From: Alphaproteobacteria bacterium
Lineage (GTDB): Bacteria > Pseudomonadota > Alphaproteobacteria > SP197
Assembly (NCBI GenBank): GCA_965200745.1
Contig: CBDAUZ010000002.1
Location: 287,847-351,846 of the forward strand
DNA length: 64,000 nucleotides
Direction of reading: 5' to 3'
The position numbers were made by a program, and so were the translations under genes. Below the pieces are notes generated by a model. That model made no database searches and was not told the origin of the DNA. It saw nothing but the letters and a program-made list of their open reading frames with translations. Shown here piece by piece: positions 8,246-58,567 of this stretch; within the stretch, counting starts at the first letter, position 1, and each line of letters begins with the position of its first letter.

Positions 8246-8666
8246 GGTTTCCTCCTGTTTCCCAGTCAGGCGCCGACGACAAGCATTGGCAGTTTCGGAC
8301 GCGAATTGCGGGTCTGATTCCCGTCATCAATCAAAATTTTTCTTCCGGTCAGGAACCCGCACCGACAATCCGGCACCTTCGACTTCGACCGGATCCATGC
8401 AACCTGCCCGATTGTGTTGTGGTAAGCCGGTTTCCCATTGTCAGTACTTTCTGAACGGATTTCGTGACATCACGTCTGCCAATTTGGCGCCGGCACGAAT
8501 TTCATGCGTATTTTTTTCGACAAGAGCGTTCCGTATCCTGGCGCGTATGCATATAGCCCGAGAACGTTAGGCATCTGGAGGGTTGTGGCCACAGCCGCGA
8601 ATAGTATGGGGATCCCGCATTCGTTTTCGACTCTTTGAATCACTGCCCGTGATCGTATTTGAACGC

Positions 8667-8879
8667 AAGCCGAGAGAGTGCCGCTTCTTCATCGGTTCGT
8701 CCCAGCGCCGACGCTCGTCGCCGCGCACAAGACGCACGACGACTTCGGACAAAAACCAGCTTGTCGGGCAGGCAGAGCGTGGTCATGTCCCACCCGTAAC
8801 ACCGCCGAGAAGCAAAAGTCAGCCCTTTTTCGGCGCCTTCGAAAAACAGGCAACCTGCGATCAGCGTGAATCAGCCCTG
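8667..8879. repeat. Copy 1 of an about 210 bp dispersed direct repeat (about 90% identical to 21153-21357). Non-coding, contains a conserved 7-8 bp hairpin at 8825-8846.
   Basis: Direct alignment of the two copies. Indels break any common reading frame. Confidence 0.85.
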
Positions 8880-9051: not shown

Positions 9052-10140
9052 ATGAATCTAGAACAGACGTTGAGAACGGTGACCACCCGCATTGCTTCGG
9101 GTGATCTAGCGAACGAGGCGCAGGTCAAACACGCCGTCGTATTGCCTGTCCTCCGCGAGTTGGGATGGGATGACAGTGATCCCAGCGTCCTCCGACCAGA
9201 GTATGCGTTAGATACCGGGTTTGTGGACTACGCGCTTCTGGACCGTGGTCGTCCGCTGATTTTCATTGAAGCCAAAAAGGTTGGGGCTTTGAGTGTGGCA
9301 GGCGAAGCGCAGCTCTTCTGGTACGCGACGAACAAGGGTGTACCTGTGCTCATCCTCACGGATGGGAATCTCTGGGACTTCTATCTCAGCATGGCGGCCG
9401 GCCCGCCGGATGAGCGCCGATTCTATCGAATGAATTTCGGGCTTGAACACAAACTTCCCGAGCACATGAATTTTCTTGAGGTGCATCTGCATAGGGAACG
9501 AGTAGTGTCAGGAGAGGCGAGAAAGAATTCCGAACAACTCCATGAAACTAATCGCAAGAAAGATCATGCGTACCGCATAATTACAACGTCCTGGAAGTTG
9601 CTATTGAGCGAACCCGATGAACTGCTCCGCGACTTGCTGATGGAAAAAGTTGAGAGTGAATGTGGGACACGACCGGAACAACAAGACATCGAAGAATTTC
9701 TGAAGGAGTACGCAAACGTGGTTGTCGAAACGCCCACCGCTCCTCGCGCAGTTCGTTCTCGAAAGAAGAGAGATGTGACTCCGGAACCGGCTGTAGGCCG
9801 GAGTGGGAAGTTGGTTGGATTCGTCTACAGGGGAGAAACCAACCATGTTGGAACGGCGATTGGCACCTTGGTTGCAGTTCTAACTGCACTCATGCAGGAT
9901 GACAGTGAATTTATTGAGAGGTTTTCTCACACAACTATCACAAGAGCTCGCAATTTGGTTGCGAAGGATCAGTCTAATCTCTATCGCGCCGCGCACCTTG
10001 CAGACATGGTGAAGAAATTGCCAAACGGGTGGTGGCTGGGATCCAATCTGAGCGAGGAACAAATTCGAAGATACATCGGGGTTGCGTGTGATGTGGCAGG
10101 GGTAAAGTTGGGTGTGCAATTGAAGCTGCTGGAAGAATAA
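9052..10140 (+). CDS. HsdR_N-type (type I restriction R-subunit N-terminal-like) PD-(D/E)XK nuclease domain protein with an uncharacterised C-terminal half
   Basis: N-terminus EAQVKHAVVLPVLRELGWD...VDYALLDRGRPLIFIEAKK matches the HSDR_N/HSDR_N_2 D...EXK core. GAGGAG RBS. GC about 52%, lower than the neighbours. Confidence 0.7.
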   Translation: MNLEQTLRTVTTRIASGDLANEAQVKHAVVLPVLRELGWDDSDPSVLRPEYALDTGFVDYALLDRGRPLIFIEAKKVGALSVAGEAQLFWYATNKGVPVLILTDGNLWDFYLSMAAGPPDERRFYRMNFGLEHKLPEHMNFLEVHLHRERVVSGEARKNSEQLHETNRKKDHAYRIITTSWKLLLSEPDELLRDLLMEKVESECGTRPEQQDIEEFLKEYANVVVETPTAPRAVRSRKKRDVTPEPAVGRSGKLVGFVYRGETNHVGTAIGTLVAVLTALMQDDSEFIERFSHTTITRARNLVAKDQSNLYRAAHLADMVKKLPNGWWLGSNLSEEQIRRYIGVACDVAGVKLGVQLKLLEE

Positions 10141-10423
10141 GCTGTTCTGTCGCGAAACTGGTGGCGTCGCGACGTCCTCTCGCAAAGTCGCCCCTCTACA
10201 GTGTTCGGGCAACCCGGAAGCCGAGGCTGTCGCTGCTGGAGCCTGACGCACCCGCGGCCCGGTTCGGGGAGCGCAGGTCCTCCACGAAGCTGCGCCAGGA
10301 GCCGACGCACACGACGCAGTAGCCACATTCCTCCCTTCCTGCCGCCTTCACCCTTGGCGGCGTCCAGTAACTTCCGTCATCCGGTGCTCCAAGGCAGCTT
10401 CCGTGCCAGCAGTCCGTGGTCTG

Positions 10424-10740
10424 TCACCTACCCATAGTCAACTGCGTCCATGACGAGGTGATTGGGCGTGGATTCCGGTGCATGTGTTCCCGATGGCTGG
10501 CGAAGAGCAGGAAGTCTCGCAGTCCCTTCCAGGCGAGTTGGGTAGCCATCATGGCGGCGAAGCGGCGGCTGTCGGCGTCGGACTCGACCTCCACCAGCGC
10601 GATCTTGCCCAAGGCCGCCAGAGTCAGGCGGCTCAGGCGTCCCGCCTTGACCGCGTCCGTGAATCGCTCCATCGTGGCCGTGTCGAACTGCCGCATGCCA
10701 ATCTGCGTGCGGCAGGGATAGACGGACAAATCCGGCGTGT
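10424..10740 (-). pseudogene. Possible remnant of a Tn3-family transposase C-terminus. Antisense to the upstream extension of the PAPS-reductase-like ORF.
   Basis: Minus-strand peptide RLSRLTLAALGKIALVEVESDADSRRFAAMMATQLAWKGLRDFLLFASH loosely resembles the Tn3 TnpA C-terminal region. Lies in a 600 bp very high-GC stretch between two genes. Confidence 0.25.
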
Positions 10741-12244
10741 CGACTATTGTCCTACTGACAGAGCCGGAGGACTGCCAGTGGCGAAACGGACGGGAAACAC
10801 ATTGGCTCAACAGACCGAACACTATACTCGCGAATCGACGAACCTTACAATTTCGGAAGTTGACACTAAGTTACCACAGCACGGTGCGTCAGGGTCGATC
10901 AAGAGATCCTGTTACGCTATTCGCGACGTTCCTAGGCTTGCGGTCTCGAAACGCCTGCGCATACCACCGCCGAATCATGATCCGAGCAAGGAGTACCGGT
11001 TCCGGTATCATGCGAAGAAGCACAGCTCCTTGCCCCATGTCGTCAAGTTCTCCGGAGGTCGCTCAAGCGGCATGCTGCTGTTCGTACTATTGGAGAACGG
11101 ACTGCTCGATGCGTCCCGAGGAGATGTCATCGTCTTCAACAATACCTCCGCTGAACACCCGGACACCTACCGGTTCGTACGTGATTGCATGCACACCGCT
11201 TACCGCTATGGAATCCCGTTCTTCCAATTGGAGTTCCAGACATACGAGGACGCCCGGCAGGGCGAGTGGACCCGGCTGCCGACGTACCGTCTCGTCAACG
11301 GTCGACCGAAATCTGCCACGAACACCGAGGGGTTCCACTGGCGAGGCGAGGTGTTCGAAGAGCTGCTTTCTTGGGCAGGCTACGTCCCGAACCAATTCAA
11401 TCGCATCTGCACGAAACACCTCAAGCTCGACGTAACCCGCAGCTTCTTGAAGGACTGGTTCGCGTCGAAGGCAACAATCCCGCGTCTCGGACACTACGGC
11501 AACCACTCTCGCATGGATCCCGATGCGGCCTTTCGGCGCCATCGGCAGAACCAGGGTGGAGTGCCTGAGGAAATCTTCCTACGAAAGCGCGCCTACGCCT
11601 GGAGCCGGCCTCATGTCCGGCCCGGACAACGCTACGATGACTTCCACCCGGGATGGCAGCCGTTCGAGAACAAGGCACTGAAGGGCAAAACGTTCGGTGA
11701 CAAGGCATGCTTCGGAAACGAAGGCGTGGAATACGTCGCTTTCATCGGGCTTAGGGGTGACGAGCCGCATCGGATCCGACGCGTGGAGGCGCGCAACGAT
11801 ACCGATGCCGGTTACGAAGGCGAGCACGTCTACATGCCGCTTAACGACATGGCGGTGACCCGAGACGACGTCAATGCGTTCTGGGAACGCCAAAGCTGGG
11901 ATCTGGAGCTCCCGGAGGACACGCGCCTTTCCAACTGCGTGTACTGCTTCCTGAAAGGAGCAGCGAACCTGGAAGCTATCCACGCCGAGCTGGACGGTGC
12001 CCGGGACTCCGAGGTGCCCGGATTCGGACCCCTTGCCAACACGCCATGCGATCTGCGTTGGTGGATGAGAATCGAAGCGTTGTACGGTCGGGACCTCCGC
12101 GCCGAGAAGCGCACGATCCGCAGAAAGGGCGCGACACACATCGGGTTCTTCGGAAACCACCCGTTTGCCTATGGAGACCTCGCCTCAGGGCGAAACCTCG
12201 GCGTACTGAGCGAGACGCTGCTGCCATGCGACTGCACAGAATGA
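10478..12244 (+). CDS. PAPS-reductase-family PP-loop ATP pyrophosphatase with a C-terminal Cys cluster (DndC/SspD-like). The true start is probably downstream of the ORF-track start, for example TTG at 11030 just before the PP-loop.
   Basis: PP-loop VVKFSGGRSSGMLLF, the CysH-like GLRGDEPHRIRR motif, and C-terminal NCVYCF...PCDLRWW...PCDC cysteines. The first 260 nt overlap the antisense remnant and have no internal ATG. Confidence 0.75.
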   Translation: MHVFPMAGEEQEVSQSLPGELGSHHGGEAAAVGVGLDLHQRDLAQGRQSQAAQASRLDRVRESLHRGRVELPHANLRAAGIDGQIRRVDYCPTDRAGGLPVAKRTGNTLAQQTEHYTRESTNLTISEVDTKLPQHGASGSIKRSCYAIRDVPRLAVSKRLRIPPPNHDPSKEYRFRYHAKKHSSLPHVVKFSGGRSSGMLLFVLLENGLLDASRGDVIVFNNTSAEHPDTYRFVRDCMHTAYRYGIPFFQLEFQTYEDARQGEWTRLPTYRLVNGRPKSATNTEGFHWRGEVFEELLSWAGYVPNQFNRICTKHLKLDVTRSFLKDWFASKATIPRLGHYGNHSRMDPDAAFRRHRQNQGGVPEEIFLRKRAYAWSRPHVRPGQRYDDFHPGWQPFENKALKGKTFGDKACFGNEGVEYVAFIGLRGDEPHRIRRVEARNDTDAGYEGEHVYMPLNDMAVTRDDVNAFWERQSWDLELPEDTRLSNCVYCFLKGAANLEAIHAELDGARDSEVPGFGPLANTPCDLRWWMRIEALYGRDLRAEKRTIRRKGATHIGFFGNHPFAYGDLASGRNLGVLSETLLPCDCTE

Positions 12245-13401
12245 CCGTCGCGCCTGTCTACCTGGACTATCAGGCCACAACCCCAATCGACCCCGCGGCG
12301 CACGAGGCCATGTTGCCGTTCCTGAGAGATCTATTCGGTAATCCCCATTCAAAAGATCACAGCTTCGGTTGGGAGGCGGCGCGGGCGATCAAGGACGCTC
12401 GAGCAAACGTTGCGGGTTTGATCAATGCAGACGACGACGAGATCGTGTTCACCTCCGGCGCCACCGAATCGTGCAACTTGGCCCTCCGAGGGGTCGCGAA
12501 TCGTTCGGGCAACGGCCGGCGAAATCGAATCGTCACGCTGGCGACAGAACACCCGGCTGTGCTCGAGACGGTTCTGGACCTGGAGCGATCGGGCTTCGAC
12601 GCTATCGTGCTTCCCGTCGAGGCGGACGGTCTCCTGAATCTCGCCCACCTCGACAAGGTGATCGATGAACGGACCCTCATCGTCTCGGCGATGGCTGCGA
12701 ACAACGAGATCGGCGTGCTCCAGCCGAGTGCCGAGATCGCGGCCCGATGTCACGACGCCGGCGCACTGTTCCACACCGATGCGACCCAAGCGGCGGGACG
12801 GATCCCGATCGATGTAGACGACTGGGGCGTCGACCTCCTGAGCTTCTCGGGCCACAAGGTGTATGGACCGAAGGGCGTGGGCGCTCTGTTCGTGCGCTCC
12901 GGCGTGCAACTAAAGCCACTCATTACAGGAGGACCGCAAGAACGGGGGCTTCGAGCGGGAACCCTGCCCCCGGCACTCATTGCCGGGTTCGGCGCTGCAT
13001 GTGAGGTCGCCGTAGCGAGACAGGAGCAAGATCGTGTACAGATGGAGACGCTCACGAAACAACTCCATACGGCTCTGCTCGACGGACATCCTACATTGCG
13101 TCTGTTCGGACACGTCGAGAAGCGACTCCCCGGGAGCCTTAATGTCGGGTTCCCCGGGCTCGCGGCCGAGGAGGTGATCCGCAACATATCCGACCATGTC
13201 GCCGTATCGAGCGGTTCGGCATGCGCATCCGCAACATCGGAGCCCTCTAGGGTGCTGCTGGCATTGGGGCTCGACCCGGAGGTCGCCGCCACCGGACTCC
13301 GGATCAGTCTGGGCCGCTTCACGACGGCGCAGGATGTCGACCGTGCAATCGCAGCACTATCCAAGCTTGCACCCCTCGCTCAACTCCATCACAGAGCTTG
13401 A
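12241..13401 (+). CDS. Cysteine desulfurase (class V aminotransferase, IscS/NifS/DndA/SspA-like)
   Basis: MTVAPVYLDYQATTPIDP start (ATGA overlap with the upstream stop), PLP-lysine motif SFSGHKVYGPKG, active-site SSGSACAS. Confidence 0.88.
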   Translation: MTVAPVYLDYQATTPIDPAAHEAMLPFLRDLFGNPHSKDHSFGWEAARAIKDARANVAGLINADDDEIVFTSGATESCNLALRGVANRSGNGRRNRIVTLATEHPAVLETVLDLERSGFDAIVLPVEADGLLNLAHLDKVIDERTLIVSAMAANNEIGVLQPSAEIAARCHDAGALFHTDATQAAGRIPIDVDDWGVDLLSFSGHKVYGPKGVGALFVRSGVQLKPLITGGPQERGLRAGTLPPALIAGFGAACEVAVARQEQDRVQMETLTKQLHTALLDGHPTLRLFGHVEKRLPGSLNVGFPGLAAEEVIRNISDHVAVSSGSACASATSEPSRVLLALGLDPEVAATGLRISLGRFTTAQDVDRAIAALSKLAPLAQLHHRA

Positions 13402-13406
13402 TCACC

Positions 13407-15425
13407 ATGCCAGGACATATCCCCAATGTTCCCGACTTACGTTTCGGCCCGGGAACGAGCGCAGGCTTTACCCCGGCCGGAGTGGCAGTCTTCGACGATC
13501 TTCGTCCTGCCGCGGTCGTGCGCGAGCTCATCCAGAACGGGTTGGACGCTGCTCGAAATGCGGAGGTCAGTACCGCCGTCGTCCGGTTTCGGCTGACCCG
13601 AGTGTCCCGGGACAAGGTCCCGGGGATTAAGAGCTACGCGAGCGCGTTCACCAAGGCGATGAAGACCCAGGAGGGCATGACCGGCGGACAGCTTAGCGGT
13701 CAGGCGAAACTCACAGCGGAGACGATCCGCAAGGCGCTTGCTCAAGACAAGATGGACGTGCTCTCAATCCTTGACAATGGGGTTGGTCTCAACAAGCAAC
13801 GTATGAACGCGCTCCTGAGCGACGGTGTTAGTGTCAAGGACGGCGCGGCGACTGGGACCTATGGGAACGGACACTCCACCGCCATCCCGGCATCGAACCT
13901 TCGCTATGTGCTATACGGCGGGCTCACCGAAGGTGGAGAACGAATCGGTGCAGGCCACGCCGTGCTCGCCTCTCACTACGAGTCGGGGGATCAACACCAG
14001 CGATCTGGAGACGGCTTCTACATCCGGGATTTTCAAGCAAGCCACAAGACGCTCTACGACTACGCGACCGGGCTCCAGCTTCCCCCGTTGATTGCGGAGG
14101 CACTTGACCTGATCGAAAAGGACACTCCACACGGCACCGCCGTCATCATCCCGGCCTTCAACCACTTTCTCGAAGAGGAAGAGAAGGATCTGTGGTCCAT
14201 GGTCTCGTACGCAGCATCGGCCAACTTCTTCGTCGCCGTCGAAAAGGGAGACCTGGTCGTCATCGTGGAGGACCATCGGTGGGGAGTGGACGAGTGCCCA
14301 CGGACCTTAGATCGGTCAAACCTCGCAGATGTGCTCGACCGACACCGGGACGAGCGACGAGCCAAGGCATTCCTCAACGGACAGCGGGCCTACGAAGCCC
14401 ACAAAATCTACCGATCCAGCGCACCACACCTTGTCGAGACCGATGCCGGCCCGATCGAGATTCGGCTCCGCGAAATCCCTGAAGGTAACACACGTGTCGA
14501 TCTGTGCCGTAACGGAATGTGGATTACCGACAACGTTCCCGTGCTGCGCAGGCAAGGCTTCGCAGATCAGGTCCCTTTCCACGCCATCCTCTCGCTCAAT
14601 GCACTAAAGGAAAGCAATCTGCACAACCTCATACGCCTCGCCGAAGGCCCATTGCACGATGCGATCAACCTCAAGCGGCTCCCAGCATCGCAGCGCAAGG
14701 CATGCCGGAGCGCACTCAAGGAAATCAAGCTATGGATCTTGGGAAACACGCAAGCGGCCAAGTCCGATGCGTATCTGTCAGACGACTTCCTGACTCTCGA
14801 CTTCGGCGACATGGACGGCAGCGGCAGAGCGGTGTTCGGCAATGCGTTCTTTGGCATGCCTGTGCCAATTCGGAAAAGTCCGACGCGCGAACGCCAGCTG
14901 TTCCCCGCCGAGGACGATCTGGAAGAAGGTGGCTCGTCCGGAAAGGGCAAGCGCACGAGGAGGGCAGTCCCGAAGACCGATCGTCGTCGGGAACGGCCAT
15001 CGCTGCCTGCGTTCTTCCAGGCCGCCTCGCGTCCGGCAGGGAAGAACCGGCGTCGGATCTGGATCGAGTGCGAGAAGAGCTGCGCCGACGCGCAGTTGCG
15101 TCTCGTCGTCGATGAGGCATTGGATGCAACATGTGAGCGTCCCGGACAGGACTCCTACATGCCTGCCGTGCTCGACAACGTCACAATCGACGCAAGGCCC
15201 GCCAGCGCCGAGGACCTCGTCCGCTGGAACGACCAAGTGATCGGCGTGCGGTTGGGCAACCTCCCCGAAGGTGCATCAGTCGAGGTCGAGACCGACTACC
15301 AGCTTCTCGGAGATTTCAGAAATCTTTCGGAGCCGTCGCTGCGGGTCGAAGTGTTCAGAACCGAGCAGGACCTCGAGACCGGCACAGGCGCCAGCGACCG
15401 CACAGGACAGGAGGCCGAGCGGTGA
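13407..15425 (+). CDS. GHKL (Bergerat-fold, MORC/MutL/Hsp90-type) ATPase with a basic C-terminal region
   Basis: N-box ELIQNGLDAARNA, G1 box ILDNGVGLN, G2 box GTYGNGHS. The start lies 6 nt after the desulfurase stop (or TTG at 13398 overlapping it). Confidence 0.8.
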   Translation: MPGHIPNVPDLRFGPGTSAGFTPAGVAVFDDLRPAAVVRELIQNGLDAARNAEVSTAVVRFRLTRVSRDKVPGIKSYASAFTKAMKTQEGMTGGQLSGQAKLTAETIRKALAQDKMDVLSILDNGVGLNKQRMNALLSDGVSVKDGAATGTYGNGHSTAIPASNLRYVLYGGLTEGGERIGAGHAVLASHYESGDQHQRSGDGFYIRDFQASHKTLYDYATGLQLPPLIAEALDLIEKDTPHGTAVIIPAFNHFLEEEEKDLWSMVSYAASANFFVAVEKGDLVVIVEDHRWGVDECPRTLDRSNLADVLDRHRDERRAKAFLNGQRAYEAHKIYRSSAPHLVETDAGPIEIRLREIPEGNTRVDLCRNGMWITDNVPVLRRQGFADQVPFHAILSLNALKESNLHNLIRLAEGPLHDAINLKRLPASQRKACRSALKEIKLWILGNTQAAKSDAYLSDDFLTLDFGDMDGSGRAVFGNAFFGMPVPIRKSPTRERQLFPAEDDLEEGGSSGKGKRTRRAVPKTDRRRERPSLPAFFQAASRPAGKNRRRIWIECEKSCADAQLRLVVDEALDATCERPGQDSYMPAVLDNVTIDARPASAEDLVRWNDQVIGVRLGNLPEGASVEVETDYQLLGDFRNLSEPSLRVEVFRTEQDLETGTGASDRTGQEAER

Positions 15426-16288
15426 GCGTCCCGTACACCGTCGAGGCAGTCGCTCCGGGACCCTCCAACGCGGTCCGCTCCCACGACCACCCCGTGCTCG
15501 AGTCAGGGAACCTTTCGTTTCCCGGTGGCCGTTATCTCTTGGACTTCCTTCCCCAAGAGAACCGCTCGTCATTTGTCATCACGCACCGGATCGAGGGCGC
15601 GGCCCTGATCAAGCGCATGCTGGAGGCTGGGCAGGCCCGATACGCCTGCGTAGTCTCTTCGCCGATCTCTTCGTATCGTCGTACGCATCTCTCGAGTGAG
15701 GCCCGGCACCAGGTGGGTTGGAACAGCGACGATCTCGGCGATCCACCGCTGTTCACGCCGATGATCCTCTGCGTCGAGCCGCAGACCATCACGATCGATG
15801 CGGATCGAGACGGCGTACATCGAATCTGGCACAAGCAGCGCATCGATGTACGGAAGGGCTCACGCTTGGCCCTCGGCAGCGTCTTCCAGCTCCAATCGTC
15901 GATTCTTCAGCTCCTGTCACTCGAAGAAGACACGCACCTTGGAGAAGGCCAGTTCTTTGTCGATGTGGGGGAAGAGCCCTTCCGCTTCCGTATCAAACTG
16001 AGCACGGAACTGCACAAATTCCTTCGCTTCCGGAAGGACCCCATCCGAAACCACATCATGACTCACATCGTGACGGCCTGCTTCGCACTGCTCCAGAAGG
16101 AGTACGCCAGCGATGACGGGGATACCGGGTGGCAATCGTTTGGTAACCTCCGGGCTCTGGCCGACCACCTCCAACACGAGGGGCATGTGGACTGGAGCGA
16201 TCAAGAATTTCATCCGGAGAGAGTCGCAACGGCGCTTTACCCGCACAAACTACCCACCGCCGATCTCGAGGCGGAGAGCGACGCATGA
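15422..16288 (+). CDS. Hypothetical protein (288 aa) with no recognisable motif, translationally coupled to the GHKL ATPase
   Basis: GTGA start/stop overlap with the upstream gene. Codon usage matches its neighbours. Confidence 0.6.
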   Translation: MSVPYTVEAVAPGPSNAVRSHDHPVLESGNLSFPGGRYLLDFLPQENRSSFVITHRIEGAALIKRMLEAGQARYACVVSSPISSYRRTHLSSEARHQVGWNSDDLGDPPLFTPMILCVEPQTITIDADRDGVHRIWHKQRIDVRKGSRLALGSVFQLQSSILQLLSLEEDTHLGEGQFFVDVGEEPFRFRIKLSTELHKFLRFRKDPIRNHIMTHIVTACFALLQKEYASDDGDTGWQSFGNLRALADHLQHEGHVDWSDQEFHPERVATALYPHKLPTADLEAESDA

Positions 16289-17148
16289 CATTCAAGGAGT
16301 TGAACGACGCGGAGTACGCCACGTTTCGAAAGGACCTACTTCGCGTCAAAGGCAGCGAACGTCAGACGAAGTTCCTCGGAATCGTCCGAAACAGCGACAC
16401 CTTCCTGGAGCACATGTCGGCCATCTCTACGGAAGGCGCAGTCGATGCAGCGCTCGCTGCCGAAGCGATGACGGAGAACGAGTACAAGGATCCACCGTCG
16501 AGTACCGAGCAAGTCCTGTACACCGCATGGTCTTCACTCACACCGGCGGTCGCTTGCCGCTCCACCTTCTGGGCGAACCTCACGATCGAACACATTCGGA
16601 CCGGCCGAATTCAATCCGCCTACTTGGCTGCCAATGGCGGCAATCTGGCCGGAGGTGCCGAGCGCATCGACTTCGTACTGGACGACACGTACGGTCAGGA
16701 GCCAAAGCAGATCGATAATTGCGTGCGTACCGTCCTGAGACGCCTCGGTGGCTTGCGAGAGGTGCGTGGCAACCGCTCGGTGTACGTCGACTGTCCATTC
16801 GCTCGCGCATGGTGGAGGGAACGCATCGCAACCCAAGCCGGAGGTGGCGACGAGGAAATGGCCTCCTGCGTGCGTACCATCCTCCGTACGAATCAGACGT
16901 ACTGGGAGAAGCTGATCGACCGAATCGTGTTCAGAAACTCGACATTCGGTTCGGAGAACATCCGTAGCGCGTTCGTGAGAGCACTCGCCCAGTGCGTGGA
17001 AACCAATCCATCATCGGAATTCACAAGCTCCACGGATTTGCAGCGGCTGTGCCGTCGCGTGACGACTTACCAGGGTGCCCGGGAACTCAGTATCTTGAGT
17101 CGCACCGAGCTGGATGACCTGATGAGGGCAGTGATCACCGAGGCATGA
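16285..17148 (+). CDS. Hypothetical protein (287 aa) with no recognisable motif. Last gene of the operon.
   Basis: ATGA overlap with the upstream gene. Coding-like composition. Confidence 0.6.
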   Translation: MTFKELNDAEYATFRKDLLRVKGSERQTKFLGIVRNSDTFLEHMSAISTEGAVDAALAAEAMTENEYKDPPSSTEQVLYTAWSSLTPAVACRSTFWANLTIEHIRTGRIQSAYLAANGGNLAGGAERIDFVLDDTYGQEPKQIDNCVRTVLRRLGGLREVRGNRSVYVDCPFARAWWRERIATQAGGGDEEMASCVRTILRTNQTYWEKLIDRIVFRNSTFGSENIRSAFVRALAQCVETNPSSEFTSSTDLQRLCRRVTTYQGARELSILSRTELDDLMRAVITEA

Positions 17149-17418
17149 CGCAAGCATACAGTCAAGAGCGCACCCTCATCACCCGAAGCCTTGCCAATGT
17201 CCGCCATGCTCCGCTCCTCCTTGTGCGTTGAGACAGGGTACAAGGAGATCGTGGCGGGACCCTAGGGCGCAAGCCACGAAACGGAGGTCGTCATTTGGCC
17301 GCTTACGACAACACAACGCAGTGCGGCTTCGGTCTCATGGCGGGAGGAGTTCGTCGCCGGTACATGGCCACCGGCGTTGATCACAGGGCCGGGCTGCGTT
17401 TGCATGCAGGCGTCGTCT

Positions 17419-18534
17419 TCACCGCCCGATCCATGCCGCGCCGTAGTCGTTGCGAGGGTTGCGGTAAATGCTGTGCGCATGGTCTGCCATGGTTGCCCCG
17501 ACGTCATACTGCGGTGAGTACTCGAGGACCAGAGTCGGCCCCGTTACCCGGAAATAGGCGAAGCCCAATGGCTCCTGCGGCCCCCACCATCCGAAACAGG
17601 TCTCGTCTATTCCCGCCCGGACAGCCGCCATCGCCGCTGCGTGGTCGTCATCGTTGATGAAGCCCAGGCGGGTATCGATCAACCCGATCAGCAGCGTCTT
17701 CTGCACGCCGGTGAGGTCGGCGCCCCTGATGCCTTCACACGGTACGAGCGTACCGTACTCGCCTGGACCAAGCAGGGCGTTGATGGCGACGTCGCCGAGA
17801 ATGGCGACCGCCTTCTGCTCGACCGTCAGGCTCCCCAGAAGCGCCTGGGCGGCCGCGGTTTCTTCTTCAGTGACAAAGACCTCTTCGCCATCGTAGCGAA
17901 CATGCAGCGGTTGGCCGCCCGTCAGCATCGGCGAAAAGGTGAGATCCGCGCCGTATATCGTCACATTGAAGGCGAGGTGATGTCCTCCGAACTGAAACAT
18001 CCAGGGCTGCGAAACGGACGGCTCGCCCAGAAACGCCACATAGAAGTGCTGCGATCCGTATCTGAGGAAAGGCACACCGGGCAACCCGTCTTCGGCGGCA
18101 AGCTGGTACTCCACGTTTCGAACGCCTCTTTCACTCAGGATTTCAGCGAGAAGCGCGTCCAGAAGCTCTCTCTGTTCCGCCGACATCTTGCCCAGTTTAA
18201 GGCCGCCGCGCGGGATCATTCCCTCCGGAAAGTTCGACCAGTTGGACCGTTGTACGTTGTCTGAAAACGCATAGGTCGCTGCCTGTTTCTGCGCCGGGTC
18301 CAGCGAAGCCAGGAAGGCGGCAGCGGCTTCCTTGATCGCGCTGGTCTTGGCGTCGGTTTCCCGGTCGACGAACGCGCTCTGCAGCGCAAGATCGACAGGG
18401 CCGACATCGACGCCGAAGAGCAGACCCGTCGTGAAACGCGGGAACAGGATCGAGGCGCCTACCAGCACGGTCAGGACAAGAACCGCTCCTGCCAGGACGA
18501 TGGAAATGCGCCTAATCCAGTTCTTGTGTTTCAT
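17419..18534 (-). CDS. Hypothetical membrane-anchored or secreted protein, possibly DUF3500 family
   Basis: N-terminal transmembrane/signal segment RRISIVLAGAVLVLTVLVGA, 371 aa. The family assignment comes from memory of overall sequence character only. Confidence 0.55.
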   Translation of the reverse strand: MKHKNWIRRISIVLAGAVLVLTVLVGASILFPRFTTGLLFGVDVGPVDLALQSAFVDRETDAKTSAIKEAAAAFLASLDPAQKQAATYAFSDNVQRSNWSNFPEGMIPRGGLKLGKMSAEQRELLDALLAEILSERGVRNVEYQLAAEDGLPGVPFLRYGSQHFYVAFLGEPSVSQPWMFQFGGHHLAFNVTIYGADLTFSPMLTGGQPLHVRYDGEEVFVTEEETAAAQALLGSLTVEQKAVAILGDVAINALLGPGEYGTLVPCEGIRGADLTGVQKTLLIGLIDTRLGFINDDDHAAAMAAVRAGIDETCFGWWGPQEPLGFAYFRVTGPTLVLEYSPQYDVGATMADHAHSIYRNPRNDYGAAWIGR

Positions 18535-19155
18535 GGCGTCGACCGTTTCATTGGCTTGTTGAACTGCTTCGGCATCCGGGCATCCCTGTCCGCCGGCGGC
18601 GCACCCTTCTCCGGAATTCCGCGTTCCGGCATACCCGACAGACGGCGAACCCCTTGCGGTCAGGATGCAGCGTCCCGATCGACATCGAGGCAGGGAGCCG
18701 GACCAGGACCCCTCAGCGGCCTTTCACTGCCGCTGGCGTCGAGCGGTACTTGCCTATGCCGTCGCGCATGGCCAGCATGATCGTCTCCACGCTGCTGCCA
18801 TCGCGACGTCTCCCGGCAGGTACGCTGGCGTACCACCAACCCTGTGTCAAGAAAGGGTAGGGCGACGCCGGTTCTAGGAGTACCGGCACTGCGCGGGTCT
18901 GTTTTCGCGAAGACAAGCGTGCTTCGGGCACAGCTGTGACCTGTTCCGGTACCCGGCGGGCCGGATAAGGTCAGGTCATGACAGCTGTTGTATCCAAGAA
19001 TAATCCGACCTGCAGGGGCCTGTTTACCGGATTATTTCGGACCGGATGTTTTTGAGAATCTGGTGTAGTGCGGGAAGGGTTTCCTGTTTCTCTCCAAGTA
19101 GTAGTATTGATTTGATCTTTTCGGCAGCCTGACCCGCGGGTTTTGGCGTCGTCAG

Positions 19156-19239
19156 GCATTCGGTTTCGAGGCCGCCGCCTGGTACTGGCACTTCGTTGAC
19201 GTGGTGTGGCTCTTCCTGTTCTTCCGCATCTACTGGTGG
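19156..19239 (+). pseudogene. Orphan C-terminal fragment of a haem-copper oxidase subunit III (cox3/cyoC-like), about 28 codons
   Basis: Translation [28 protein letters not shown] equals the highly conserved subunit III C-terminus. No upstream body, and no stop codon at the expected position. Confidence 0.7.
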
Positions 19240-19470
19240 GCGGCGGAAAGATTGCCCATCACTGACGGATGCCGTGCTGCCGTCGGGGCCAGGAGTCCAT
19301 CCGACTTGCAATCGGAAGCACACGTGTCGGGGTAGGTCGCCCGACAGGTGGCATCCTCCTGCCCACCGCCCTGTCCGATTTGTATGCCGTGCCCGAACAC
19401 ACCAGCCTTTTGCCGAGAATTGACAGAGATGCCAGCAAGCGGTGTTGCACAGGCCTTCAAGGACGCTATC

Positions 19471-19490
19471 ATGTACATTAACATGTACAT
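19471..19490. promoter_or_regulatory. Candidate antitoxin operator: two copies of the self-palindrome ATGTACAT separated by TAAC, 13 nt upstream of the antitoxin start
   Basis: ATGTACATTAACATGTACAT immediately precedes the RBS GAGGTAGGG and the ATG at 19504. Confidence 0.5.
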
Positions 19491-19503
19491 TTGAGGTAGG
19501 GAC

Positions 19504-19785
19504 ATGGGAGAACAGCATTCGATCGCAGATGCGCGGCGCAACTTGCCGCAGCTAATCCGTCAAGTGGAACGAGGCGAACCGGTGCAACTTACCCGGCGCG
19601 GAAAGCCAGTCGCGGTGCTGCTCGGAAATCAGGCCTTCGAGCGGATTGTTGCCGGTCGACGCAGCTTTACAGAGGCCTATGCAGAGTTCGCGAAGGCGGT
19701 CGATCTTGCGGAACTTGGTATCGATCCGGCGGAATTTCTAGACGGCGTCCGGGATCGGGATCCAGGCCGCGACGTGTGGATATGA
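19504..19785 (+). CDS. Type II antitoxin, Phd/YefM family
   Basis: 93 aa with Phd-like N-terminus (IADARRNLPQLIRQVERGEPVQLTRRGKPVAVLL). ATGA-type overlap with the downstream toxin region. Confidence 0.8.
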   Translation: MGEQHSIADARRNLPQLIRQVERGEPVQLTRRGKPVAVLLGNQAFERIVAGRRSFTEAYAEFAKAVDLAELGIDPAEFLDGVRDRDPGRDVWI

Positions 19786-19788
19786 TCG

Positions 19789-20199
19789 GTGCGGTATCTG
19801 CTCGACAGCAAAATCATCTCCGAGCCGATGCGCCCGGCACCGGCGCCCGGAATCATCAGGGGTTTGCGTGAGCACAGTGATGAGATCGTCATCGCGGCAC
19901 CTGTCTGGCACGAGTTGCGTTTCGGTTGCGCTCGTCTCCCACCCTCAAGGCGCCGGAATGCGATCGAGCGATACCTTGCGGAGGTGGTGCTTGCGACCTT
20001 TCCCGTGCTCGACTACGACCGGCATGCTGCGGACTGGCATGCCCGGGAGCGAGCACGGCTCAGCGCCGCTGGCGAGACACCGCCATTCGTCGACGGTCAG
20101 ATTGCCGCGATCGCCGTTGTCAACGAACTGATCATTGTAACCTCGAACATCCGGGACTTTGAGAGATTCCAGGGAGTGCAGATGCAAAGCTGGTCCTGA
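19789..20199 (+). CDS. vapC: Type II toxin VapC (PIN-domain ribonuclease)
   Basis: GTG start. N-terminus RYLLDSKIISE with the PIN acidic residues, C-terminus IVTSNIRDFERF typical of VapC. Confidence 0.8.
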   Translation: MRYLLDSKIISEPMRPAPAPGIIRGLREHSDEIVIAAPVWHELRFGCARLPPSRRRNAIERYLAEVVLATFPVLDYDRHAADWHARERARLSAAGETPPFVDGQIAAIAVVNELIIVTSNIRDFERFQGVQMQSWS

Positions 20200-20217
20200 C
20201 GCTGGCGAAGCCTGCTG

Positions 20218-20917
20218 TCAGGCCATGTAGCCCCCGCAATTGACGGACAGCGTCGATCCTGAGATGAAACCCGCCTCCTCGGCGGCGAGGAAGACGACGC
20301 AGCGGGCTACCTCTCCGGGTTTGCCGCTGCACCCGACGGGAATACCGGAGTCGATCCGCTCCATCACGGCGTCGCTGATATGGGCGATGAGGTCGGAACG
20401 GATATAGCCCGGGCAGATGTAGTTGACCCTGATGCCCTTGCTTGCGTTCTCGAGGTCCAGCGATTTCGTGAAGCCGAGCATGCCGACCTTGGCGGCGGCA
20501 TAGTTCGCGACGCCGAGCATGCCGGAATGCGCGTTGATCGAACTGATGTTGATGATGCGCCCGAAGCGGCGGCTGGGCATGCCGCCTAGAACCGCATGCG
20601 CCATGTTGAAGCAGGACCCGAGATTGACGTCGATCACAGTCTGCCAGTTCTCCGCATTCGTCTTGTGAAGGAATCCGTCCCGGGAAATCCCGGCGTTGTT
20701 CACAAGGATGTCCACAGCGCCGAGCTTCTCCTCGACCTCGGCGACGCCCTGGGCACAGGCCGCATGATCGGCGACGTCCCAGCGGAAGACCGGGATCCCC
20801 GTCCATTCCCTGAACGCTTCCGCCGCTTCGGTGTTGTCGGCGTAGCGGGCGGCCACCTGGTAGCCGGCGTCGCGGCAAGCCGTGGCTTCCGCCGGTTACG
20901 AGTACGACGCGGGTCAT
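20218..20917 (-). pseudogene. phaB: Acetoacetyl-CoA reductase-like SDR (phaB-like). A roughly 35 nt deletion plus frameshift removes the glycine-rich cofactor-binding loop.
   Basis: [10 protein letters not shown] is in one frame (from 20917), then [19 protein letters not shown]...NNAGI...NISS...YAAAK...PGYI continues in another frame. The expected SRGIGAAI segment is missing. Confidence 0.7.
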
Positions 20918-20935
20918 GTGCTGTGCGCTTCCTTG

Positions 20936-21403
<468 letters not shown>

Positions 21404-47573: not shown

Positions 47574-48809
47574 TCATGAGATAAACTCGAGAATATTGTG
47601 CGCCGCCATGTCGGACGATGAACCGCACGGATGACGCAGGGAAGCAATCACCTTCCGGAATTCCCTGCACTGCCCCGAACGGAGTCGATCGTCGTGAAGA
47701 AGTGCCGTCACGGCGTCAGAAACAGCATCAACCGTAAACGCGTCCTGAATGAACTCGGGCGTCACCTGCTTGTCCGCCAGGATGTTGACCAACGACAGGA
47801 AACTGGCATTCGACAGGCGTCGAAACCGTGCGGCTGACATCCGGTCAGCGCGACCAACGACGACATGCGGCGTACCGGCAGCCGCAAGTTCCAGTGCTGC
47901 CGATCCAAGTTTCGCGACTGCGGCATCGGCGATTGTCATCAGCGCGACTCGTTTATCGGCATTGGCCGCCTCGACAATCACCCGTACATTCCAGGATTGC
48001 AGCGCGTTTCGCAGCCGGTCTGCCACGCCTTCGACGGTCGGAACAACATAGACGATCTCGGGAAAAAACTGAGCCAGTCGCTCTGCAACCCCCCTGACAA
48101 GAGGAAGCTGATTTCTGATTTCCGCATCGCGACTTCCCGGCATCAATAACACGATCGGTCCAGTCCGACCGTCGAGAATTCTGGCGCGTTCCCGCGCCGG
48201 GCAATCGGGAATTGTCAATCCCGAAACCCGGTGGCCAACAAAGACCGCATCCTGGCTCACCGCATCCCACCACGGTTTCTCGAAAGGAAACAGCAGCAGA
48301 AGCCGGTCGAACAGGCCCGCGATCCGTTGTGTACGCTCTGACTTCCATAACCAGACAGTGGGCGCAACATACTGGATGACCGGGCACGGCGCCGGGTAAA
48401 GCCGCCGGGCAAACTGGTAGGCAAATTCCTGCGAATCAACGGTCACCACGACCGCCGGACGTTGTGTCCGCACAGCGGCAACAGCCTGCCGTATTCGACG
48501 GAGGATTGTTGCGAGACGCAACAAGACGTCCAGATAACCGGTAACCGCCAGATCCGTCATCGGAAACATGGGTTCAAACCCTTCGGCTTCCATTTCGGGT
48601 CCGCCGACGCCCGCAAACCTGACATGTCCGCCGGTCTGGTTGATCAGGCTGCGCATGAGCCCTGCACCAAGAACATCACCCGATGGCTCACCGGCAACTA
48701 TGAAAATCAGAGGGGCAGGCACCGTATGGTCACCGATCGACGAGATGGCATCCTTCCAGAAACAGGCCATTCCTGTTTGCGAGGGCAATTGTCTTTTCCC
48801 GCTCGACAA
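47574..48809 (-). CDS. lpxB: Lipid-A-disaccharide synthase
   Basis: IFIVAGEPSGD N-terminus. The start is likely downstream of the ORF-track start (for example Met at 48770). Confidence 0.9.
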   Translation of the reverse strand: MSSGKRQLPSQTGMACFWKDAISSIGDHTVPAPLIFIVAGEPSGDVLGAGLMRSLINQTGGHVRFAGVGGPEMEAEGFEPMFPMTDLAVTGYLDVLLRLATILRRIRQAVAAVRTQRPAVVVTVDSQEFAYQFARRLYPAPCPVIQYVAPTVWLWKSERTQRIAGLFDRLLLLFPFEKPWWDAVSQDAVFVGHRVSGLTIPDCPARERARILDGRTGPIVLLMPGSRDAEIRNQLPLVRGVAERLAQFFPEIVYVVPTVEGVADRLRNALQSWNVRVIVEAANADKRVALMTIADAAVAKLGSAALELAAAGTPHVVVGRADRMSAARFRRLSNASFLSLVNILADKQVTPEFIQDAFTVDAVSDAVTALLHDDRLRSGQCREFRKVIASLRHPCGSSSDMAAHNILEFIS

Positions 48810-49554
48810 TCAGTGACTCACCCGCTTCGATGACTATGCCGGAAAAGCCCGATTCCACGCACAGTTGCACCGTTGTGGTACCAACCGTGGGAAGATCCGC
48901 GCGCCGATCCTGATCCGGATACCTGATCTTCACGAGTATCGGACCGGGTCCGGACCGCTTCAGACTCCCGCAGCGCCTGATCAACGCATCCGTTCCTTCA
49001 ACCGCTTCCAGACCGAGCACCATACCCTGTTGCACGACGATGGATTGACCAAACTCGAATGATCCGAGCGCATCAAGAATTGATGCTCCGTGGTGAATAT
49101 CCTCCCGTTGTTCCTCGTCCGGGCCGCGTTCTGTCAACACACCGGCAGGCGCAAGTAACGAATGAACAATCTCATCGACTCCGACGATACGACCCGCCCC
49201 GTGCTCCTCGAACAGTCTGATGACAAGCTTGAGCAACGAACCGTCTCCAAGTCGCAGGTCACGGCGTTTCATGAGATGATGCGCGTTTCCGTTCTGCGGC
49301 AACGTGTCTGCCGACGGCCGGCGCACGGTTCCGGTGAGAACGATTTCCTCGACACTTTCGTTCCTGAATATTTCAAGTGCGCCTGGCACGTCCCAGAGAT
49401 CGAGCCAGTGCGGATCATGCGACGTGACGATGTCGGGGTCCGCATGGTCCCGCAACGCCAGCAGGACACTTGCCCGACCCTGTTCCTTCACTGTTTGCGC
49501 CACGATACCCGGAAGTGCACCACCCCCGGCAATGATGCCGAGTTTAGGCAACAT
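48730..49554 (-). CDS. lpxI: UDP-2,3-diacylglucosamine pyrophosphatase LpxI (DUF1009)
   Basis: Position between lpxA and lpxB, GIIAGGGALP N-terminal motif. Confidence 0.8.
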   Translation of the reverse strand: MLPKLGIIAGGGALPGIVAQTVKEQGRASVLLALRDHADPDIVTSHDPHWLDLWDVPGALEIFRNESVEEIVLTGTVRRPSADTLPQNGNAHHLMKRRDLRLGDGSLLKLVIRLFEEHGAGRIVGVDEIVHSLLAPAGVLTERGPDEEQREDIHHGASILDALGSFEFGQSIVVQQGMVLGLEAVEGTDALIRRCGSLKRSGPGPILVKIRYPDQDRRADLPTVGTTTVQLCVESGFSGIVIEAGESLIVEREKTIALANRNGLFLEGCHLVDR

Positions 49555-50347
49555 CAGCAGGTTTGGGTTTGCACAGCCCGCGATTACCTTTCGATTGCAC
49601 AAATGCGAGAACCGCATCGACAGGGCCGCACGGGTTCACGAAATCCTTGATTGCCTTGGCAATCCGGTCCTCGAAAATTCCCTCATCCGAAAACAGGTTC
49701 TGGTACAGCTTGCTCAGCGAGTCGATTTCAGTTCTCGGAAACCCGCGGCGCCTGAGCCCGATCAGATTGATCCCGTCGAGAGCAGCGCGATCGCCATTCG
49801 CCCTTCCGAAGGGAATCACATCGCGTACAACAGCTGAAAATGCGCCAACGATTGCATGCTGACCAACCCGGACATTCTGATGAATTGCCGACCGCCCACC
49901 AAGTATGACGAAATCCCCCACGACGGCGTGGCCACCAAGCAAAGTCTGATTGGCAAGAACAACATTGCTGCCGACCTGACAGTCATGGCCAACGTGGGCG
50001 CCAATCATGAACATGTTGTCGTCGCCAATTCGCGTCACCATCGCGTCGGTGACGGTGCCGGTATTCATGGTGACCTGTTCGCGAATGATATTGTTGCGTC
50101 CGATCTCCAGACGGGTGGGTTCGCCCCTGTACCTGATGTTCTGCGGCGCCTGGCCAAGTGAGGAAAACGGATACACCGTACTCCCGGCCCCGATCGTCGT
50201 TATTCCCTCGACAACAACATGCGACTTCAATTCAACCTTGTCATCGAGGACGACATCGGGGCCAACCACGCAGTATGGTCCGATGATCGCCGTGTCCGCG
50301 AGGCGCGCACCGGGGTCAACGATGGCAGTTGCATGAATTCGGGCCAT
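49544..50347 (-). CDS. lpxA: Acyl-ACP--UDP-N-acetylglucosamine O-acyltransferase
   Basis: Hexapeptide-repeat LbH fold, MARIHATAIVDPGA start. Confidence 0.93.
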   Translation of the reverse strand: MARIHATAIVDPGARLADTAIIGPYCVVGPDVVLDDKVELKSHVVVEGITTIGAGSTVYPFSSLGQAPQNIRYRGEPTRLEIGRNNIIREQVTMNTGTVTDAMVTRIGDDNMFMIGAHVGHDCQVGSNVVLANQTLLGGHAVVGDFVILGGRSAIHQNVRVGQHAIVGAFSAVVRDVIPFGRANGDRAALDGINLIGLRRRGFPRTEIDSLSKLYQNLFSDEGIFEDRIAKAIKDFVNPCGPVDAVLAFVQSKGNRGLCKPKPADVA

Positions 50348-50355
50348 GAAGTCGG

Positions 50356-50841
50356 TCAGCCGTTCTGAAGCATGGCTGTTGCAATACCTTCCGCAACGAT
50401 CACATCATCAACTTTCGTGACGCAGTGGAATCGCCAGAATCGTCCACGCTGGTGATCCTTCCTGACATAAAGCTTCATGACATCTCCCGGCGTGACCGGT
50501 TTGCGGAACCGCGTCTTGTCCACCGTGACGAAGTAGATCACCTGACCCCACGCCTCTTCACCGAGCGTGGCAACCATGAGGACGGCAGACGTCTGCGCCA
50601 TCGACTCGATGATCAGCACCCCAGGCATGACCGGTTGTGCCGCGAAGTGACCCTGAAACTGCGGTTCGTTGATCGAGACATTCTTGATTCCGACAGCACT
50701 CTCGTCGGGAACGATATCAATAACCCTGTCGATCATGAGAAACGGATACCGATGAGGAATGAGCTCCATGATCTTGATGATATCAAGAGACTCGAATGTC
50801 GATTTCTGGTCAAGATAACCTGTATCGCGGGCATCGTTCAT
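50356..50841 (-). CDS. fabZ: 3-hydroxyacyl-ACP dehydratase
   Basis: Hot-dog fold motif HFxxxPVMPGVLIIE. Confidence 0.93.
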   Translation of the reverse strand: MNDARDTGYLDQKSTFESLDIIKIMELIPHRYPFLMIDRVIDIVPDESAVGIKNVSINEPQFQGHFAAQPVMPGVLIIESMAQTSAVLMVATLGEEAWGQVIYFVTVDKTRFRKPVTPGDVMKLYVRKDHQRGRFWRFHCVTKVDDVIVAEGIATAMLQNG

Positions 50842-50845
50842 TCGT

Positions 50846-51862: not shown

Positions 51863-51867
51863 CCGGT

Positions 51868-52428
51868 CTACTCTTGTTCGGTATCTTTGAGTGTCATTGC
51901 GGGAACGCTGCTGTTCAATTCCGAAATAACGTCTTCCGTGAGATCCAGCGTTTTGTTCGCCACCAGATACTGTGGCCTGCCAAGGATGATATCGATCTCG
52001 CGTTCGGTCATTATGTCTTGCAATATTCGCAGTACGTGACCCTGCAATTCGCCAATAGCTTCGGTTTCCCGTGTCCCGAGGTGACTTTCCTGGTTTCTGA
52101 TGTGATCACGCAATTCCTGCAAATCCCGTTCAAACTCCACTCTCAGCGTTGTCAACTTGTCCTCGGACAGCAATGAAGATTTTGCGGCAATGTCCGTTTC
52201 GCGTTTGCGCAATTCATCTTCCATTTCCGCAATTTCCTCGGAGGCGGCCTTGCGCAACTGCCGGACCTGACTCGTTATCGACTGACCGGCACTTGATTGC
52301 CGAATGATGTACTGCAGGTCAATGAAAGCGACTTTTGAACCGTCGTGTGCAGAAGCCGCCGTGACAAGAAAAGCCAGCGCGACAGCAACAACGGAAGCGA
52401 TCGGAATCTTTCGGACGGAATGCATCAT
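51868..52428 (-). CDS. skp: Periplasmic chaperone Skp (OmpH)
   Basis: Signal peptide plus coiled-coil-rich 186 aa, located between bamA and lpxD. Confidence 0.85.
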   Translation of the reverse strand: MMHSVRKIPIASVVAVALAFLVTAASAHDGSKVAFIDLQYIIRQSSAGQSITSQVRQLRKAASEEIAEMEDELRKRETDIAAKSSLLSEDKLTTLRVEFERDLQELRDHIRNQESHLGTRETEAIGELQGHVLRILQDIMTEREIDIILGRPQYLVANKTLDLTEDVISELNSSVPAMTLKDTEQE

Positions 52429-54692: not shown

Positions 54693-54714
54693 CAGTCTCC
54701 CCGAGCACAGCCTC

Positions 54715-55830: not shown

Positions 55831-55851
55831 AGCACAGGTCCCGGGAGATAT

Positions 55852-57012: not shown

Positions 57013-57030
57013 GTCAGGGGCGAAGATCAT

Positions 57031-58561: not shown

Positions 58562-58567
58562 CCGGGT

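Follow-up and report, generated by a model that had tools for sequence, protein, structure and literature searches.

We analyzed a 64,000-nucleotide stretch of an alphaproteobacterial genome of the SP197 lineage (assembly GCA_965200745.1, contig CBDAUZ010000002.1, forward strand, positions 287,847–351,846; the whole stretch is called the window), which contains a candidate gene cassette for sulfur-based DNA modification. Five co-directional genes on the plus strand, here named g2 to g6, span positions 10778–17148 of the window, and all of their open reading frames (ORFs) are intact and full length. They encode a PP-loop protein of the 3'-phosphoadenosine 5'-phosphosulfate (PAPS) reductase superfamily (g2, 10778–12244, 488 amino acids from a GTG codon at 10778), a group-I (IscS/NifS/DndA-like) cysteine desulfurase dependent on pyridoxal phosphate (PLP) (g3, 12241–13401, 386 amino acids), a GHKL (Bergerat-fold) ATPase (g4, 13407–15425, 672 amino acids), a 288-residue protein predicted to form an Ig/FN3-like beta-sandwich at its N-terminus and helices in its C-terminal half (g5, 15422–16288), and a 287-residue all-alpha DUF6339 protein (g6, 16285–17148). 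The genes are tightly joined: g2 and g3 overlap by ATGA (12241–12244), g4 and g5 by GTGA (15422–15425), and g5 and g6 by ATGA (16285–16288). The first-pass annotation of this DNA had given the same three overlaps and a 6-nucleotide gap between g3 and g4; the overlaps were confirmed, but the gap is 5 nucleotides (TCACC). Genes called independently on contigs of other sequencing runs had the same g3 to g6 boundaries, and their proteins are 99–100% identical to those of the window. No sigma-70-like promoter was found by scanning upstream of g2, the promoter/terminator scan returned fewer sites than shuffled controls, and scanning the window for Rfam families and tRNAs gave no match.

Related loci were collected by a GHKL profile scan with one genome per species, which gave 72 loci, and six window proteins (g2–g6 and the product of g1, a gene lying upstream) were compared with them by tblastn. 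The genes g2, g4, g5, and g6 were found together, with g2 adjoining the g4-g5-g6 trio, in 69 of the 72 loci, and g3 is in place in 57; g1 was found in none. The cassette consists of five genes: a four-gene core (g2, g4, g5, and g6) and the desulfurase g3, which is facultative, as is DndA in Dnd systems (PMC12914056).

Proteins encoded by the cassette

A longer g2 ORF starts at 10478, and its upstream extension is missing from homologues. These are typically 445 amino acids long, and conservation begins near residue 147 of the long ORF. The likeliest start is the GTG at 10778, which follows GGAGGA, a good ribosome-binding site, by six bases. In an alignment of 12 homologues, the PP-loop (FSGGRSSGM) and the Cys motifs ICT, NCVYCF, and C-terminal PCDCTE are invariant. 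Together with the Aminotran_5 domain of g3 (Pfam, 1.1e-82), they bear out the earlier description of a PP-loop protein with a C-terminal Cys cluster beside an IscS-like desulfurase.

The g2 sequence is too divergent to be caught by Pfam: its match to PAPS_reduct (E-value 0.018–0.028) is under the cut-off, and a weak match was also seen in 9 of the 12 homologues. Among the defence profiles of PADLOC (v2.0.0, 2023, which predates the Tdp system), the g2 family matches only three. SspD is matched by all 12 family members (best E-value 1e-9), and g2 aligns only to positions 101–176 of this 277-position model (about 80 residues). BrxP is weakly matched by 10 of the 12 homologues (best 8.6e-5), with window g2 at 0.005 over the PP-loop. 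DndC is matched by a single homologue of the 12 (5e-3), and window g2 has no match to it. In NCBIfam, g2 did not match the models of TtcA, TtuA, ThiI, MnmA, or CysH, and gave three very weak matches to PRK13795 ('hypothetical protein'; E-value > 1e-3, far under the cut-off). An identity as a tRNA thiolase (TtcA/TtuA) or CysH, which would have undermined the initial proposal, thus received no match in this library, and the proposal is unrefuted on that count. A g2 profile search of the PDB found no solved relative by sequence. The plasmid genes that g2 matched in tblastn encode generic PAPS reductases, lie in unrelated contexts, and were set aside as uninformative. We infer that g2 may be a sulfur-inserting ATP pyrophosphatase like SspD, BrxP, and DndC.

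The g3 protein matches the PADLOC models of DndA (5.5e-141) and SspA (5.6e-141), and its translation shows both SGHK, with the PLP lysine, and SSGSAC, with the catalytic Cys. Its scores are under the NCBIfam equivalog cut-offs of IscS, NifS, and DndA (390 vs 480 bits for DndA), indicating a separate subfamily.

An alignment of 19 homologues supported the earlier call of g4 as a GHKL Bergerat-fold ATPase: the ExxxNxxD N-box (E40-N44-D47), the DNGxGL motif beginning at D123 (DNGVGL), and the GTYGNGH motif beginning at G150 are invariant. Six homologues carry a precomputed PF02518 (HATPase_c) match, and window g4 itself is under every Pfam cut-off. Its best-defined relative is the PADLOC model PDC-M33A (9e-35). 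A g4 profile search of the PDB gave only a weak match to the N-box of the MutL N-terminal domain (E-value 0.36). The last ~170 residues (about 500–672), whose conservation was measured over 64 loci, contain a conserved RL..DE..D.TC motif; distant plasmid relatives align only up to about residue 496, and on these alignments only the sulfur-linked clade has the C-terminal region. Sequence searches detected no effector fold, such as a nuclease or toxin, in g4. In a profile search of 1.84 billion representatives, the wider GHKL family comprised about 2,000 clusters, 399 of them at E ≤ 1e-30, and a scan of viral contigs found no GHKL gene.

The g5 protein has no Pfam family match and no recognized catalytic motif. 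It matches the PADLOC model PDC-M33B (3e-4 in the window; 55 of 57 homologues, best 3e-13). Its structural model has a predicted local distance difference test score of 73.7, with a confident N-terminal domain, the Ig/FN3-like beta-sandwich, followed by helices; the underlying alignment had 6 rows (a concatenated g5+g6 query returned 27 proteins, mostly g6). A PH-domain-like assignment, based on a marginal PDB sequence match (E-value 0.009), was rejected because the fold search did not support it. In contrast to g5, g6 matches a Pfam family above its cut-off (DUF6339, 3e-9), as well as the PADLOC model PDC-M33C (3e-3 in the window; 7 of 27 homologues). Its predicted all-alpha model had no solved structural relative in the fold search. 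These two proteins had been described as without recognizable domains, which holds for g5 with respect to Pfam but not for g6, and both match PDC-M33 profiles. All residues invariant in the g5 and g6 homologue alignments are intact in the window proteins.

In some metagenomes g5 and g6 are naturally fused into a single protein (P0241 and P0243), suggesting that the two proteins probably bind each other as a heterodimer. In three further fusions (P0244, P0259, and P0261) the N-terminal beta-sandwich of g5 (about 155 amino acids) is joined to full-length g6, which implies that g5 has two separable domains. Single-linkage clustering had suggested that g5 and g6 are paralogues; they show no pairwise similarity, and the link was due to fusions and ORF calls. 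Another protein, P0242 (608 amino acids), combines a g6 homologue with a C-terminal HNH-like DUF1524 region (HRHHIFP...NGV), and is either a natural g6-nuclease fusion or the product of a deletion that joined g6 to a downstream DUF262-DUF1524 gene. Seven of 27 g6-family proteins also match a PADLOC model named 'Type I specificity subunit' (best 1.7e-4), which could be a chance match between helical proteins or a hint of a role in target recognition.

Linkage across genomes and exchangeable partners

The cassette loci come from more than ten phyla, with carriers among Gamma- and Alphaproteobacteria, Longimicrobiales, Acidobacteriota, Dehalococcoidia, Spirochaetia, Binatia, Latescibacterota, Verrucomicrobiae, Thermodesulfobacteriota, and others. 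GHKL identity reaches 68–76% between phyla while the flanking genes are unrelated, which points to horizontal transfer; judged from these sequences, the cassette is mobile. Nearly all carriers are metagenome-assembled genomes (MAGs). Many record names are linked to sponges or corals (Porifericomitales, Entotheonella, Porisulfidus, Poribacteria, and a Porites-derived isolate label), suggesting that the carriers seen here may mostly be sponge and coral symbionts.

A second scan, centred on g2 in metagenomes, found the GHKL gene adjoining g2 in 33 of 51 loci; the rest are short or cut contigs. This linkage persists where g2 identity is only 36–50%, and whether the order is PAPS-GHKL-B-C or GHKL-B-C-PAPS-IscS, with GHKL-B-C denoting the trio. 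No other evidence that the four core genes work together is as strong as this persistence through rearrangement and deep divergence. Conservation of the gene neighborhood, which the first-pass annotation had named as a check, was thus observed in genomes and metagenomes alike.

A few loci depart from the common arrangement. A Longimicrobiales MAG (L010, 7450–21929) carries two complete, divergent cassettes in tandem, the second with 35–41% identity to the window proteins. The presence of a separate PAPS-like gene in each copy hints at cognate pairing. In L069 (6673–18703), one PAPS-like gene is followed by two tandem GHKL-B-DUF6339 trios, and a full GmrSD (DUF262 + DUF1524) gene lies on the opposite strand. 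In L053 the trio lacks a PAPS-like gene, and a TnsA-like endonuclease gene (9360–9872) lies directly upstream; a transposon may have displaced the writer gene here.

Clustering of all ORFs in the 72 loci revealed that 45 carry one of two partners, PbeABCD (22 loci) or a DUF262-DUF1524 gene (23 loci), and never both. PbeABCD is an experimentally shown phosphorothioate-dependent antiviral module (PMC6459918). PbeA (6e-151) and PbeC (2e-45) were recognized directly, and the Pbe loci also contain a gap of about 216 nucleotides of PbeB size and an ORF of about 170 amino acids of PbeD size. DndD-like matches in the related loci belong to PbeC. The DUF262 partner, of about 600 amino acids, has a DGQQR motif and, C-terminally, an HNH-like DUF1524 signature; among solved proteins, BrxU is closest to it (7e-13). 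In 8 of the 72 loci the cassette is accompanied by DndB-like genes, and the same partners recur around the rearranged metagenomic cassettes. None of the Pbe, DUF262-DUF1524, or DndB-like partners is present in the window. In some loci the partner is inserted between g2/g3 and g4, as a DUF262 gene in nine and as a Pbe cassette in L064. Between g6 and PbeA lie a protein of about 500 amino acids with weak methyltransferase-like matches and one of about 650 amino acids with a sigma-70 region-4 helix-turn-helix (L006, 13736–17257; equivalents in 13–21 loci); neither of the genes ahead of PbeA is in the published PbeABCD description.

The recurrence of the cassette beside phosphorothioate-linked PbeABCD, DUF262-DUF1524, and DndB supports the sulfur-based reading that had been proposed from the window alone. 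The core of that proposal, a sulfur-based modification or defence operon, is upheld by homology, neighborhood, and partners, but the HsdR_N protein encoded by g1 is not a member, and the GHKL trio is not wholly novel.

Comparison with known systems and the proposed function

As of January 2026, four phosphorothioate systems were counted, Dnd, Ssp, Tdp, and BREX type 4, and Tdp is cited as the third (PMC12914056). Like Ssp, the cassette combines a desulfurase with a PP-loop enzyme of the PAPS-reductase type, g2 finds its best PADLOC match in SspD, though over about 80 residues only, and the DUF262-DUF1524 protein of some loci has the domain make-up of SspE. On the other hand, SspB (DUF4007 nickase) and SspC (DUF6079 P-loop ATPase) are unmatched by the window proteins in PADLOC and Pfam, the ATPase is of the GHKL rather than the P-loop class, g2 homologues are considerably longer than the SspD model, and the DUF262 partners do not match the SspE model. 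Similarity to Dnd lies in the DndA-like desulfurase, in the PP-loop and cysteines that g2 shares with DndC, and in the PbeABCD and DndB-like neighbors; however, no DndD or DndE match was found in the six window proteins, DndFGH are absent, and the DndC model hardly recognizes the g2 family. BREX type 4 contains BrxP, a PAPS-reductase protein, but BrxC, PglZ, and BrxL have no counterpart here, and g2 lacks the DUF4007 part of BrxP. The canonical partners are therefore absent, as had been noted at first: there is no DndD, SspB, or SspC match and no DndB-like gene in the window.

GHKL ATPases are known in DNA-modification-linked conflict systems (MutL-like, MORC, paraMORC, and Mza), and g4 shares their Bergerat ATP-binding motifs, but it has no significant sequence match to them beyond the N-box. 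One of these groups, paraMORC, is the subject of PMC8011034. In the searched library no paper was found that joins DndC with GHKL, and none of those listed joins phosphorothioation with GHKL; GHKL, MORC, and MutL are unmentioned in a 2024 reappraisal of Dnd systems. The view that a GHKL gene paired with the two sulfur enzymes is an undescribed arrangement is consistent with this, but only in part: the trio g4-g5-g6 matches PDC-M33A, PDC-M33B, and PDC-M33C, three adjacent genes of a PADLOC candidate. PDC-x systems are described as unpublished candidates (PMC11811056), and the searched library yielded no paper on 'PDC-M33' or 'DUF6339'. The neighborhood search reported in PMC12914056 was seeded with DndC and SspD homologues and required an adjoining P-loop nucleoside triphosphatase (NTPase); the cassette would escape such a search because its ATPase is of the GHKL type and its PP-loop enzyme is too divergent for Pfam.

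Based on these comparisons, a reasonable hypothesis is that g2 to g6 form one cassette which would mark the cell's own DNA with sulfur, most likely as phosphorothioate, and act as a single writer machine (probability about 0.55). Judged by homology, g3 would form a persulfide with sulfur drawn from cysteine. In analogy to PP-loop thiolases such as SspD, BrxP, and DndC, g2 would bind ATP, activate the target phosphate, and pass on the sulfur via its invariant cysteine cluster (CxxC and C-terminal CxC), possibly with an Fe-S centre bound there. SspD and BrxP are experimentally tied to phosphorothioate synthesis, and BrxP makes phosphorothioate together with an ATPase (PMC12914056). The trio would stand in for DndD/DndE, SspB/SspC, and BrxC, perhaps as an ATP-gated, DNA-engaging clamp that locates target sites, stays on them, and licenses g2. 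As the neighborhoods suggest, the mark may then be read by exchangeable effectors, PbeABCD or the DUF262-DUF1524 nuclease. Since the window carries neither, the cassette here would be an orphan modification module or would depend on an unlinked reader.

In its architecture, the cassette probably represents a new type among phosphorothioate-like DNA modification systems. Whether it represents a fifth, mechanistically distinct phosphorothioation pathway, with a four-gene core in which GHKL replaces the P-loop ATPase/nickase, exchangeable readers, and a spread through sponge and coral holobionts, is in our view an even bet. There is only a slim chance that the mark is not phosphorothioate but another, new sulfur modification. 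What would be novel is a sulfur-based modification or defence system with a different ATPase class, one protein without a solved relative, and one with a generic beta-sandwich.

Several observations weigh against a single writer machine, and some of them concern the trio. Distant relatives of g4, with 24–27% identity over its N-terminal 70%, are located on plasmids of Lactococcus, Ligilactobacillus, Deinococcus, and Arthrobacter. On Lactococcus pS127, a trio in the same order, GHKL-B-DUF6339, lies between regulators and AbiG. On Ligilactobacillus salivarius pMP1046A (L079, 5600–17317), it lies between HsdS-HsdM and genes for a 900-residue methyltransferase, a DEAD helicase, and a GIY-YIG nuclease, where the same trio may form the basis of a composite system that relies on methylation. 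The plasmid B protein is homologous to g5 (hhalign probability 95.7%). No PAPS-reductase or desulfurase gene is annotated in the Firmicutes plasmid regions shown, and the likeness to PDC-M33 is that of a distant relative only, since these regions lack the sulfur genes and the g4 C-terminal region is confined to the sulfur-linked clade. These neighborhoods suggest an older origin of the trio as a module, one also found next to DNA methyltransferases in place of sulfur enzymes; the trio can thus work without g2, which fits an effector role as well. There is a parallel in the DndD-DndE core, which can recruit methylases instead of sulfur enzymes (PMC10853773).

The alternative is a two-module restriction-modification system in which g2 and g3 write the mark and GHKL-g5-g6 form an autonomous PDC-M33-type restriction or effector arm, which would block or attack DNA lacking the mark. 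It would agree with the listing of the trio as a three-gene phage-defence candidate, with its defence-gene neighborhoods on Firmicutes plasmids, with the locus that has the trio but no g2 and the one with two trios behind a single g2, and with the faster divergence of g4–g6 than of g2–g3 (29–82% vs 45–86% identity to the window proteins over the 72 loci). The insertion of partners exactly between g2/g3 and g4 also suggests two modules rather than one machine. In Tdp, TdpC and DndA are reported to form a minimal writer (a PP-loop enzyme and a desulfurase) next to separate restriction proteins TdpAB; this split resembles such an arrangement and would make Tdp an exception to the need for an NTPase. 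Nevertheless, a fold search of the models found no effector fold in g5 or g6, and none was detected by sequence in g4. The 45 loci with Pbe or DUF262-DUF1524 already carry a dedicated effector, which would be redundant under two modules. The described phosphorothioate writers need an NTPase partner, namely DndD, SspC, or BrxC (PMC12914056), and the linkage of g2 to GHKL survives inversion of gene order and deep divergence. We therefore regard the two-module system as unlikely, though a serious competitor. The fold search also speaks against the single writer in one respect, since neither g5 nor g6 showed a nickase or nuclease fold.

The nature of the substrate is a further point at which the phosphorothioate writer can be challenged. 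The cassette might instead thiolate a DNA base, RNA, or tRNA, or produce a small molecule containing sulfur, with the trio in another role. As described above, g2 is under the Pfam cut-off and its SspD alignment covers about 80 residues only; it is a distant member of the PAPS-reductase superfamily, to which tRNA thiolases and enzymes of sulfate assimilation also belong. Modified bases are often the target of GmrSD-type DUF262 enzymes, and BrxU is the closest solved relative of the DUF262 partner. PbeAC cassettes also occur beside methyltransferases (PMC6459918), so that their presence is no proof of phosphorothioate. Against another substrate, no thiolase or CysH family of NCBIfam matched g2, and the only defence-library matches of g2 are phosphorothioate synthases. 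Moreover, the neighbors act on DNA (PbeA helicase, SMC-like PbeC, DndB, and DUF262-DUF1524), and relatives of the trio adjoin DNA methyltransferases. An activity other than DNA phosphorothioation therefore seems improbable, and the phosphorothioate writer remains our preferred reading.

The surrounding island and biological meaning

The cassette lies in a 12.5-kb segment bracketed by direct repeats of about 220 nucleotides on the plus strand (8662–8879 and 21148–21357). Each copy comprises three adjacent repeat families with 91–100% identity, about 12.48 kb apart, and a 38-mer of the repeat occurs exactly twice in the window (0 expected). The repeats could be an integration scar or a duplicated target. 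Within the segment are g1 to g6, a minus-strand DUF3500 gene (in the region 17419–21388), a Phd/YefM-PIN toxin-antitoxin pair (19504–20199), and gene fragments: a short-chain dehydrogenase/reductase (SDR) gene with a truncated N-terminus (20218–20856, minus strand) and a C-terminal thiolase fragment (20936–21388, minus strand), which look like a broken phaA/phaB-like pair. This content agrees with the initial picture of a repeat-bracketed, pseudogene-rich segment with a toxin-antitoxin module. Upstream of the segment are a trpEGDC operon and a Rieske dioxygenase gene. A weak inverted repeat of 34 nucleotides (71% complementary; 9072–9105 and 17178–17211) flanks g1–g6 and is probably due to chance. 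Further downstream, GC skew is persistently negative from about 48 kb on (48000–64000; -0.06 to -0.11), which differs from the first 48 kb.

The gene g1 (9052–10140, plus strand) is of the HsdR_N type, as first described: it matches Pfam HSDR_N (4e-8) and has the D...EAK signature of a PD-(D/E)xK nuclease. It had also been counted as the first of six linked genes. The linkage holds for g2–g6 with their tight junctions, but g1 was rejected as a member of the system, given its absence from the related loci, the 637-nucleotide spacer between its end and g2 (10141–10777), and the annotations of its plasmid relatives, which name an HsdR N-terminal domain or a type I restriction protein and not a part of a sulfur system. 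The gene is solitary, its C-terminal half is uncharacterized, and plasmid copies include those of haloarchaea, Rhizobium, and Curtobacterium. The spacer region carries a 132-residue minus-strand ORF (10424–10822), and neither the spacer nor this ORF has a homologue in the related loci or plasmids.

Such surroundings raise the question of whether the block is a decaying, non-functional passenger in this genome. The repeat bracket, the truncated SDR gene and thiolase fragment, the homologue-free stretch upstream of g2, the lack of a Pbe or DUF262 partner, and the failure of the promoter scan would all suit that explanation. However, the five ORFs are full length, the invariant residues of g2, g4, g5, and g6 are intact, g2 has a good ribosome-binding site, and nearly identical proteins were recovered from separate runs, all of which make decay very improbable.

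If the cassette is a phosphorothioate writer, it would represent a new enzymatic solution for the insertion of sulfur into DNA and would provide a first function for DUF6339 and the PDC-M33 fold set. It would also supply a modification partner for Pbe cassettes that have no dndCD nearby, as is the case for 320 of 553 pbeAC pairs (PMC6459918), and so explain part of the 'solitary' Pbe. The mark would then be a defence or epigenetic marker exchanged over more than ten phyla in sponge and coral microbiomes.

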